Part shown: positions 732 through 6,839 of the stretch, in pieces
How positions within the stretch are numbered: position 1 is the stretch's first letter
How the letters are laid out: each line of letters opens with the position of its first letter
Virus record (IMG/VR): IMGVR_UViG_2695420687_000002
Origin: a virus
Lineage: Duplodnaviria; Heunggongvirae; Uroviricota; Caudoviricetes
Direction: 5' to 3' (one strand)
DNA: 6,839 bases
Made by a program: the position numbers and the translations under genes
Notes under the pieces: generated by a model
What the model was told of the DNA's origin: nothing
Seen by the model: only the letters and a program-made list of their open reading frames with translations
Databases searched by the model: none

Positions 732-1127
732 TTATTGCATTCTGGCCAGGCCATGTTCTGTCATTTCGGCTGCCACACTGGCAGAGACACGGAACGCCGT
801 TCCCGGCAGTACGAATGCCACTGGTTCATCCCGCGTGGCGTGAAGTGCAACAGTGTGCAGCGTCACCAGTGCCACGACCGTGACCAGAGCAGCCGTATCA
901 GTCACGGTATCCGGCTGCGCTGATACCACCTCATTTTCATGCCTGGTCAGCACATTTTCCTGGCTGAGAGGTGTGTCCTGACCGGCAGTGTCATCCGTGT
1001 CATCAAGCTCCTCTTCCAGCTCTGCCACACGGAGCGCCAGTTCTTCTTTCGTCCCCGTCAGGCTGACATCACGGTTCAGTTGTTCACCCAGCGAGCGGAG
1101 ACGGGCAATCAGTTCATCTTTCGTCAT
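732..1127 (-). CDS. FI: DNA-packaging accessory protein FI (131 aa)
   Basis: ORF track 732..1166; lambda-like product begins MTKDELIARLRSLGEQLNRD at the internal ATG (plus 1125-1127), preceded by GGAGAAG SD. The 13 extra N-terminal codons in the track overlap the E/FI hairpin and lack an SD. Acidic central stretch ELEEELDDTDDTAGQD. Confidence 0.85.
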   Translation of the reverse strand: MTKDELIARLRSLGEQLNRDVSLTGTKEELALRVAELEEELDDTDDTAGQDTPLSQENVLTRHENEVVSAQPDTVTDTAALVTVVALVTLHTVALHATRDEPVAFVLPGTAFRVSASVAAEMTEHGLARMQ

Positions 1128-1148
1128 GGACTTCTCCACAGAGAGACA

Positions 1149-1166
1149 ATGGCCCCGAAGGGCCAT
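1149..1166 (-). other. Perfect 7-bp GC-rich RNA stem-loop with UUCG tetraloop in the E-FI intergenic gap (minus-strand RNA: AUGGCCC-UUCG-GGGCCAU)
   Basis: Read directly: plus 1149-1155 atggccc, loop 1156-1159 cgaa, 1160-1166 gggccat. Lies 2 nt after the E stop codon and just upstream of the FI SD. No U-run follows, so it is not a canonical intrinsic terminator. Confidence 0.5.
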
Positions 1167-1168
1167 GA

Positions 1169-2194
1169 TTACGCCAGTTGTACGGACACGAACTCATCAG
1201 GGTCAGCCAGCAGCATCAGCGGTGCTGACTGAATCATGGTGAACTCACGCGCCGGATCGCCGGTGGTCACCCAGTTTTTCGGGTAACGGGCAGAGGCGTT
1301 AATGCCTTCGCGCTGTGCGTCCGCATCCTGAATGCAGCCATAGGTGCGCAGACCGCGTGCCTGAGTGTTGCCCAGCACCATCGTGTTGTCCGGCAGGAAG
1401 TTCTTTTTGACACCATTTTCCACGTACTGTCCGGAATACACGACGATGGCCACATCGCCATACATTCCCTTATAAGACACCGCTTTGCCCAGGTCTTTTA
1501 CCGCTGTCTCCAGTTCGGAATGAGAGCCGCGACGGGTATCCAGCTTCTCCCTGACGGCTTTGAAGGAACGGAACAGCGCCCAGCCTTTCGGATCAAACAC
1601 GATGATATTCACCACACCGCTGGCGTTCAGCGCGTAGGCTTCGATATCGTCGGTCGGGTCATACGTGGACTTGTCACGCTTACTCCACTCCGTGCCGCCG
1701 GACTGCGTGATGTTATTCGCCGCACTGCGACCCATATCCACCTCAACCGGATCGAAGGCTTCACCGGTCATGGTGTATTTGCCCTTAAGCACGGCAGAAA
1801 CTGCCTGCATCTCTTCCACCTGGGCAATGGCCAGCTCTTCGTCACGCATGTTCTGCATGATGATGCGACGGCGACGGTAAGCCGGGTCCGCCAGATTCTG
1901 CGGATCTTCATCCGGCAGGCGACGCAGGGTCATCTGCGGATTCACTTCATGCTTGGGTTTGACATATCCCGGCGTAAATTCAGAGGTGGAGCCGCCACGG
2001 GAGCGGATAACCTCACCGGAAACAATCGGCGAAACGTACAGCGCCATGTTTACCAGTCCCGGAATTTGTGAGAGATAGACTTTCTCCGTGGTGAAGGGAT
2101 AGCTTTCACGGAAAAAGAGACGCAGAAACAGCGGATCAAACTTAAATTTCTGCTCATTTGCCGCCAGCAGCTGGGCGGTTGTGTACATCGACAT
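1169..2194 (-). CDS. E: Major capsid protein E (341 aa)
   Basis: ORF track 1169..2221; the lambda gpE N-terminus MSMYTTAQLLAANEQKFKFDPLFLRLFFRESYPFTTEKVYLSQIPGLVNMALYVSPIVSGEV starts at the ATG at plus 2192-2194. The track start at 2221 is a GTG inside the D/E hairpin. Length 1026 nt matches lambda E. Confidence 0.95.
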   Translation of the reverse strand: MSMYTTAQLLAANEQKFKFDPLFLRLFFRESYPFTTEKVYLSQIPGLVNMALYVSPIVSGEVIRSRGGSTSEFTPGYVKPKHEVNPQMTLRRLPDEDPQNLADPAYRRRRIIMQNMRDEELAIAQVEEMQAVSAVLKGKYTMTGEAFDPVEVDMGRSAANNITQSGGTEWSKRDKSTYDPTDDIEAYALNASGVVNIIVFDPKGWALFRSFKAVREKLDTRRGSHSELETAVKDLGKAVSYKGMYGDVAIVVYSGQYVENGVKKNFLPDNTMVLGNTQARGLRTYGCIQDADAQREGINASARYPKNWVTTGDPAREFTMIQSAPLMLLADPDEFVSVQLA

Positions 2195-2207: not shown

Positions 2208-2232
2208 AAAAAAAGCCGCACAGGCGGCCTTT
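2208..2232 (-). terminator. Intrinsic-terminator-like hairpin plus U7 tract between D and E (minus RNA: AAAG-GCCGC-CUGU-GCGGC-UUUUUUU); likely attenuator or RNA-stability/translation element rather than a full stop
   Basis: Read directly: plus 2215-2219 gccgc, loop 2220-2223, 2224-2228 gcggc, A7 at 2208-2214 (U7 on the minus transcript). The U-tract runs into the SD-less E start (…UUUUUUUACGGGAUUUUUUUAUG). Confidence 0.45.
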
Positions 2233-6589: not shown

Positions 6590-6684
6590 TATTGCCCGGC
6601 ATTAAGCTGGAAAGTCCAAAAATCACCCGTAACCTTACCACTGCATGGTTTGCAAAGCGTGTAGATCACCGAGGGGGGCGCAGT

Positions 6685-6839
6685 ATGAAAAAGAGATCAA
6701 TAGGGAATTGTGTGCCAGATAAGGCGTTTACGCTTTATCTGGCAAAGTACATCTTACTGGCGGCGATGTCGCCCGTGCAGCCATCCGGCCAATATTGCAA
6801 AAATGAATCAGCCAACCAAAAATGGTATCAGTCCAAAAA
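6685..6839 (+). CDS. Possible 5' end of a non-phage gene of unknown function (open to window end; at least 51 codons)
   Basis: ATG at 6685 preceded by GAGGGGGG 6 nt upstream; frame open to the window edge (MKKRSIGNCVPDKAFTLYLAKYILLAAMSPVQPSGQYCKNESANQKWYQSK...). Weakened by the REP-like palindrome lying inside it and by my not recognising the product. Confidence 0.2.
   Translation, partial: MKKRSIGNCVPDKAFTLYLAKYILLAAMSPVQPSGQYCKNESANQKWYQSK
6713..6744. repeat. REP-like imperfect palindrome (tgccagataaggcgt-tt-acgctttatctggca), resembling enterobacterial repetitive extragenic palindromes
   Basis: Read directly: 15-nt arms 6713-6727 and 6730-6744 with one mismatch (G·U in RNA). Resembles the E. 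coli/Salmonella REP core ...GGATAAGGCGTTTACGC... from memory; not database-verified. Confidence 0.4.

Follow-up and report, generated by a model that had tools for sequence, protein, structure and literature searches.

Lambda late genes are read from one promoter by a Q-modified, terminator-resistant RNA polymerase. In bacterial operons, intercistronic hairpins are known to stabilize upstream messages at their 3' ends by blocking 3'-to-5' exonucleases, as exemplified by the REP sequence between malE and malF of malEFG and by the hairpins of the puf operon. The closest described counterparts of the stem-loop considered here are found in two phage records, namely, a stem_loop feature at 7053-7073 of N15 (NC_001901), annotated as a putative rho-independent terminator, and a regulatory feature at 7009-7028 of HK225 (JQ086371), annotated as a terminator; both annotations are predictions. 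Two further types have been described in the literature. According to the account given in PMC8948821, Tuerk et al. (1988) reported hyperstable C(UUCG)G intercistronic hairpins in phage mRNAs. In T7 (Tphi) and LUZ100, a terminator lies directly 3' of the capsid gene, where it is thought to raise the level of the capsid message relative to those of the downstream genes (PMC10134795).

The hairpin analyzed here lies between the major capsid gene E and the packaging gene FI in a 6,839-nt stretch of phage DNA (IMG/VR record IMGVR_UViG_2695420687_000002; the whole stretch is referred to below as the window). It shares with the N15 and HK225 features a homologous position, its orientation, a downstream GGAG and ATG, and the stem (AUGGCCC...GGGCCAU, compared with GUGGCCC...GGGCCAC), and differs from them in its loop (UUCG rather than AUUC or UGUC), in its bottom pair (A-U rather than G-C), and in the spacer between stop codon and hairpin (2 nt rather than 9 to 10 nt). 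Like the hairpins of Tuerk et al. as presented in PMC8948821, it has a CUUCGG motif with complementary arms in an intergenic position on a polycistronic phage mRNA; that class, as presented there, is defined by the loop, whereas among the relatives of the window the loop is replaceable and the GC stem and U-rich tail are conserved. It also resembles the leaky terminator of T7-like phages, in that a strong hairpin closely follows the capsid gene within an operon of structural genes that all run in one direction (PMC10134795). However, the T7-like terminator acts on a phage RNA polymerase and is paired with a local promoter, whereas in lambda the host polymerase is made terminator resistant by Q and there is one distant late promoter. 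With the REP and puf stabilizers it has in common a stable stem-loop, a highly expressed upstream cistron followed by a less expressed one, and a proposed block to 3'-to-5' exonucleases; those elements have no sequence relation to the window hairpin, for which a stabilizing effect is a prediction. We read the cited literature as speaking for the class to which the element belongs and not for what the E-FI hairpin does in lambda.

Literature searches, including searches with the literal sequence, returned no paper describing the lambda E-FI hairpin or mapping the site. The first-pass annotation of this DNA was aware of no described function for the hairpin, and it overlooked the terminator-type class: since homologous hairpins are annotated as rho-independent terminators in the N15 and HK225 records, the feature has already been described.

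A perfect stem-loop in the E-FI gap

The hairpin is encoded on the minus strand, which is the late-transcript strand, and reads AUGGCCC-UUCG-GGGCCAU from window position 1166 to 1149 (Table 1). The first-pass description of a perfect 7-bp GC-rich stem with a UUCG loop, 2 nt after the E stop, was accurate to the base. Five of the pairs are G-C and two are A-U, and the C(UUCG)G loop has 4 nt. The hairpin is separated by 11 nt from the GGAG of FI and overlaps neither this Shine-Dalgarno (SD) sequence nor the FI start codon, so that the SD is not occluded.

Table 1. Features of the E-FI junction in the window, listed in the order of the late transcript
Feature	Position in window	Strand	Basis or remark
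Major capsid gene E, 341 aa	1169..2194	-	ORF list; Pfam Phage_cap_E, 1.2e-71
E stop codon TAA	1171-1169	-	Sequence
Spacer TC (UC) between E stop and hairpin	1168-1167	-	Sequence
Hairpin 5' arm AUGGCCC	1160..1166	-	Sequence; fold
UUCG tetraloop with C-G closing pair	1156..1159	-	Sequence
Hairpin 3' arm GGGCCAU	1149..1155	-	Sequence; outer two pairs covary, inner five invariant
Pyrimidine/U-rich tail TGTCTCTCTGT = UGUCUCUCUGU	1138..1148	-	Degenerate U tract and spacer before FI ribosome-binding site
FI Shine-Dalgarno GGAG, 6 nt 5' of ATG	1134..1137	-	Sequence
FI, DNA-packaging chaperone gene; start ATG at 1127-1125	732..1127	-	Pfam Packaging_FI, 8.5e-52

Folding of the minus-strand RNA with RNAfold, a check that the first-pass annotation had proposed, bore out the structure: the 26-mer containing the hairpin has an energy of −12.9 kcal/mol (z = −3.3, with 1 of 200 shuffles equally good), and the hairpin is retained in both the minimum free energy (MFE) and the centroid structures of a 66-nt context. 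The core GGCCC-UUCG-GGGCC is that of the C(UUCG)G class, and the thermodynamic bonus of such loops is counted in the fold. On the sense strand of the 6.8 kb, this is the sole perfect hairpin with 7 bp and a 4-nt loop, and its 22-nt fold is equaled in stability in just 1.2% of the 47-nt stretches of the window. By energy, it ranks about 12th among the 26-nt local folds of the sense strand, and all of the stronger ones lie within translated ORFs. As about a dozen local folds in the ORFs of the window are equal or better, we rejected exceptional stability as a sole argument; the case for the element comes from its position in an untranslated gap and from its conservation, not from its energy. The strongest 26-nt fold of the sense strand, CGGCGGUGC-CUG-GUGCCGCCG (−15.2 kcal/mol), is located at 279-304 on the minus strand, in the coding sequence of the gene that follows FII. 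A search of Rfam at a permissive threshold gave no hit at the E-FI site beyond noise, the sole overlap being with PhotoRC-I (14.2 bits compared with a gathering score of 45; E = 6.3).

Conservation and covariation of the stem

The hairpin region of the window is about 99% identical to those of lambda, 434, and HK629/630, and its E protein is 98.8 to 100% identical to the E proteins of the lambda group. The stem core does not vary among 78 lambda-like loci, which have A-U or G.U at the bottom of the stem and, apart from single exceptions, UUCG in the loop. The tail occurs as UGUUUCUCUG (lambda), UGUUUUUCUG, UUUCUCUCUG, and UGUCUCUCUG (window). A scan of IMG/VR with E returned only loci with 99 to 100% identity, which are of little value for covariation. 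A scan of genome contigs suffered from heavy lambda spike-in contamination and yet yielded informative prophages of Enterobacteriaceae, with the hairpin present in those of Kluyvera, Phytobacter, Klebsiella, Buttiauxella, Trabulsiella, Citrobacter, Pluralibacter, and Enterobacter. The near-identical lambda fragments from that scan (L103-L118 and others) reside in assemblies from unrelated organisms, on contigs that are short and often of low coverage, including those of Chromatium, Neobacillus, Kitasatospora, Paenibacillus, Bradyrhizobium, and Akkermansia, and most likely represent contamination with lambda control DNA.

Compared with the window, the prophages of Enterobacteriaceae are 76 to 84% identical over the last 300 nt of E and 56 to 65% identical over the first 300 nt of FI. 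Despite these diverged flanks, and with indels in the spacer, the GGCCC-N4-GGGCC core is unchanged in them. N15, phi80, and HK225 carry GUGGCCC-AUUC/UGUC-GGGCCAC, in which the bottom pair is G-C and has thus changed on both sides. Among 21 distinct variants (alignment A3), 96.6% of the cells are paired, and the two outer pairs have changed on both sides, one among A-U, G.U, and G-C and the other among U-A, C-G, and U.G. A covariation score as high as that of the alignment was reached by none of 500 shuffles, and pairing fell to 32 to 57% when the partner was shifted by one to three columns. The refuting outcome named by the first-pass annotation, a lack of conserved pairing and covariation across lambdoid phages, was not observed. 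Further, the variants contain eight G.U wobble cells on the sense strand and zero A.C cells, a pattern expected of a sense-strand RNA and not of a DNA palindrome or an antisense RNA. An invariant stem amid diverged flanks, with outer pairs that are compensated or change by wobble only, indicates purifying selection. The E-FI hairpin is real, conserved, and an element of the sense-strand RNA.

The loop behaves differently. UNCG is found in 16 of the 21 distinct variants, and the N15/phi80 clade departs from it. With the stem intact, the loop is AUUC in N15, UGUC in phi80 and HK225, and UGUU, UUUC, UUCU, UUCA, or UUAG in others, and UCCG and UGCG also occur in relatives. We regard UNCG as the majority state rather than as a loop sequence selected in itself. 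The conserved part is the stem, and the UUCG loop is nonessential, given that N15 and phi80 have different ones. The emphasis that the first-pass annotation placed on the UUCG loop was overstated, as loops vary among the relatives and the stem is conserved.

A GGAG is located 6 to 12 nt 3' of the hairpin in all homologous spacers, and the distance from the E stop to the hairpin is 2 to 14 nt in relatives. In an Erwinia prophage, the same place is occupied by a 7-bp stem of different composition, UGGUCCC-GUCC-GGGGCCA; MAFFT misregistered this variant, and it was omitted from the pair count. In Escherichia phage PhiR70_1 (L005, PV340577), an IS4 element (transposase InsG; about 846-933) is inserted within the 3' arm, where ATGGCCCTTCGGGG is followed by TAATGCC..., and splits E from FI.

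The U tract and the terminator class

With 7 bp, 5 G-C pairs, a 4-nt loop, and −12.9 kcal/mol, the hairpin has the form expected of an intrinsic terminator, whose GC-rich stem spans about 5 to 14 bp and whose loop is short. It also has the expected placement, being located on the late-gene sense strand in the untranslated gap between the E stop and the FI SD. The tail is less canonical. In the window, UGUCUCUC has 4 U in its first 8 positions and falls below the rule of our terminator scan, whereas the lambda tail, UGUUUCUC, which has one U-to-C change fewer, was called terminator-like. Tail scores were −3.08 for the window, −3.66 for lambda, and −5.24 for a homologous locus, L166; homologue tails have 7 to 8 U in 10 positions, with U tracts of up to 8 U and scores down to −5.2. 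Canonical U tracts directly 3' of the hairpin are found in many relatives, among them L166 (UUUUUUUU), L132 (UUUUUAUUU), and L123 (UUUCUUUUAU), where the end of the stem joins the tail as GGGCCGUU-UUUUUUCU, GGGCCAUU-UUUAUUUCU, and GGGCCG-UUUCUUUUAU, respectively. The U-rich tail is present on the sense side only; what lies 3' of the hairpin on the plus strand is GATTACGCC. As the U tract is degenerate (UUGUCUCUCU) in both the window and lambda, the element can be at most a weak, leaky terminator there. The E-FI hairpin is of an already recognized kind, namely, a leaky terminator-type stem-loop after the major capsid gene.

Hairpins after the capsid genes of other phages

In phage 21 and PhiR5_1, the E-FI spacer is unrelated yet contains the hairpin CGGGGGC-GAAAU-GCCCCCG followed by UGUCUUUUUU. 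More distantly, we sampled 11 phages with E-type capsid proteins at 25 to 35% identity (Suzuki, AH2, Vibrio K251, MA12, Chi, PS3, Ruegeria V7, RcJoli, PPF1, NrS-4, and AchV4). A strong GC hairpin is present in the gap 3' of the capsid gene in 10 of the 11 (Fisher-combined p = 1.2e-6 against each genome's own background), and when the window is counted with them, no head-module gap has a stronger hairpin than the post-capsid one in 10 of the 12 genomes. Suzuki, AH2, and MA12 have each acquired a UUCG loop independently. On the basis of these comparisons, the E-FI element belongs to a widespread and positionally conserved class of terminator-type hairpins right after the major capsid gene.

Proposed role of the hairpin

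We hypothesize, with moderate confidence, that the E-FI hairpin is the stem-loop of an intrinsic-terminator-type signal on the late mRNA that has a weak U tract, is read through by the Q-modified polymerase, and then serves as a 3' barrier favoring the E message. RNA polymerase without the Q modification would pause and partly terminate at the hairpin, and this partial termination would insulate the downstream genes from stray transcription. The Q-modified polymerase would pass, leaving the C(UUCG)G hairpin in the message, where, after cleavage downstream, it could block 3'-to-5' exonucleases so that segments bearing E (and D) would outlive those of FI and the genes beyond. Together with residual termination, such a block would shift message dosage in favor of the protein of which each head requires hundreds of copies. 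The setting matches that of the known stabilizers, in that a stable hairpin separates E, which encodes the capsid shell protein, from FI, and the two cistrons are unequally expressed. The sequences show the structure, its rarity in the window, its covarying conservation and strand specificity, the U tracts of relatives, and the analogous hairpins of distant phages; termination, read-through, exonuclease blocking, and an effect on the E:FI ratio are inferred. Of the roles suggested by the first-pass annotation, protection from exonucleases, processing, and reduced FI translation are likewise conjectural. If this mechanism is right, the hairpin would be a small device that helps one 26-kb late transcript to yield differing amounts of virion proteins and that also keeps the late genes silent until the Q-modified polymerase arrives.

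Several points weigh against the terminator and barrier reading. The U tract of the window is poor, with 4 U in its first 8 positions; ribosomes at the E stop, 2 nt upstream, would have to melt the 5' arm each time; and the ORFs of the window contain about a dozen folds of comparable energy. Because the Q-modified polymerase is terminator resistant, little termination is expected in lytic growth. Further, Sampson and coworkers reportedly found, in 1988, that late-mRNA levels were roughly uniform over the length of the lambda operon and ascribed protein ratios to translation initiation, in which case any dosage effect in lambda would be limited or small.

Translation offers another explanation, which we judge to be unlikely: the hairpin might mainly serve FI by shielding its ribosome-binding site from E sequence and terminating ribosomes, burying a stray AUG or GUG located 2 nt after the E stop, and blocking re-initiation there, so that FI initiation is set from its own SD. 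The constant location of the hairpin 6 to 12 nt 5' of a conserved GGAG would fit such a role, as would the in-frame ATG or GTG within the hairpins of lambda, N15, and phi80 and a weak GUGGA/UCCAU stem that, in the centroid structure, can bring part of the SD into pairing with the AUG. However, the hairpin itself is clear of the SD and start codon, and the weak SD-pairing stem is not conserved. The hairpin lies anywhere from 2 to 14 nt after the stop codon, and many relatives have CCG, GCG, or ACG in place of the buried start codon; therefore, a block to re-initiation cannot be the conserved role. The U tracts of relatives, and analogous hairpins at sites where the downstream gene is not FI, instead point to a role at the level of the transcript.

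It is also conceivable, though in our estimation improbable, that the hairpin of lambda and the window is a decaying, functionless relic that has been retained through descent or has spread by recombining at the boundary of the E and FI modules. The U tract is indeed degenerate in lambda and more so in the window, an identical stem core across genera would also be expected from recombinational spread of a shared junction, and PhiR70_1, with IS4 in the 3' arm, was deposited as a complete phage genome, so that the hairpin may be dispensable. Against this stand the ten noncoding stem positions that are invariant next to coding DNA of 56 to 84% identity, the outer pairs that change solely by compensation or wobble, and the independent placement of hairpins at this spot in unrelated phages.

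The ten bases of the GGCCC/GGGCC core are more invariant across genera than base pairing alone demands. This excess could mean, although we consider it very unlikely, that the hairpin is recognized in a sequence-specific manner by an RNA-binding or processing factor, of host or phage origin, that defines the 3' end of the head message, or that it is a conserved linker at which head and packaging/neck modules are exchanged among lambdoid phages. An RNase III site is unlikely, as 7 bp is far below the roughly two helical turns that the enzyme needs. Finally, action on the DNA level (as a protein-binding site, cruciform, or recombination hotspot) or on an antisense transcript is highly improbable and was rejected, since the perfect DNA palindrome, the nearly equal fold of the plus strand (−12.5), and the IS4 insertion into the palindrome of one phage are outweighed by the eight sense-strand G.U pairs (A.C on the other strand) with none of the reverse type, by the confinement of the U-rich tail to the sense side, and by the bias of the loop to UNCG, an RNA-specific stabilizer.

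Start codon of FI

The in-frame ATG at 1166, which opens the 5' arm of the hairpin, had been dismissed as a spurious start by the first-pass annotation, and the comparative data agree. The equivalent codon in relatives is ATG, GTG, CTG, CCG, GCG, or ACG, it lies in frame 0, 1, or 2 with respect to the FI ATG, and the changes are mostly nonsynonymous; we therefore rejected a coding extension of FI from this codon. In the RefSeq record of phi80 (NC_021190), the FI homologue is begun at position 538, at a GTG that coincides with the first stem base of the hairpin, and in the N15 and HK225 records it is begun at the downstream ATG with a GGAG SD. For phi80 as well, the sequence comparison favors the downstream start. 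Annotators should not place the start of FI at an in-frame ATG or GTG within the hairpin.

At the true start, a weak second stem, GUGGA-GAAG-UCCAU (1126-1139, minus strand), may form in which, according to the centroid structure, the AU of the start codon pairs with part of the FI SD. The GGA...UCC/CCC complement before the ATG recurs in several relatives and is broken in one variant (L061).

Genomic context

The window is a lambda-type head-gene block on the minus strand, comprising the C-terminal part of A followed by W, B, C/Nu3, D, E, FI, and FII, and the identities of all eight genes were borne out by Pfam. The gap between D and E (2208-2232, minus strand) contains a stem-loop with a more canonical intrinsic-terminator shape, AAAGGCCGC-CUGU-GCGGCUUUUUUU, followed by ACGGGAUUUUUUU-AUG, the start of E. 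In a 76-nt context, its MFE is −19.4 (z = −2.5). The terminator scan missed this hairpin because the scan extends the stem into the U run. Together, the D-E and E-FI hairpins flank E on both sides with terminator-like structures in a Q-antiterminated operon, and those who engineer capsid expression from lambda should be aware that the E-FI spacer, like the D-E spacer, holds a terminator-like signal.

At the other end of the block, the frame of terminase gene A is interrupted at about 6589, and positions 6590-6839 have the look of nonphage sequence. None of the complete E. coli genomes searched has the junction at about 6589, with matches ending at the terminase part. The window is probably a defective lambdoid prophage without cos, Nu1, and the N terminus of A. 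A REP-like palindrome, GCCAGATAAGGCGTTTACGCTTTATCTGGC, with a weak match to Rfam naRNA4, is located at about 6712-6745.
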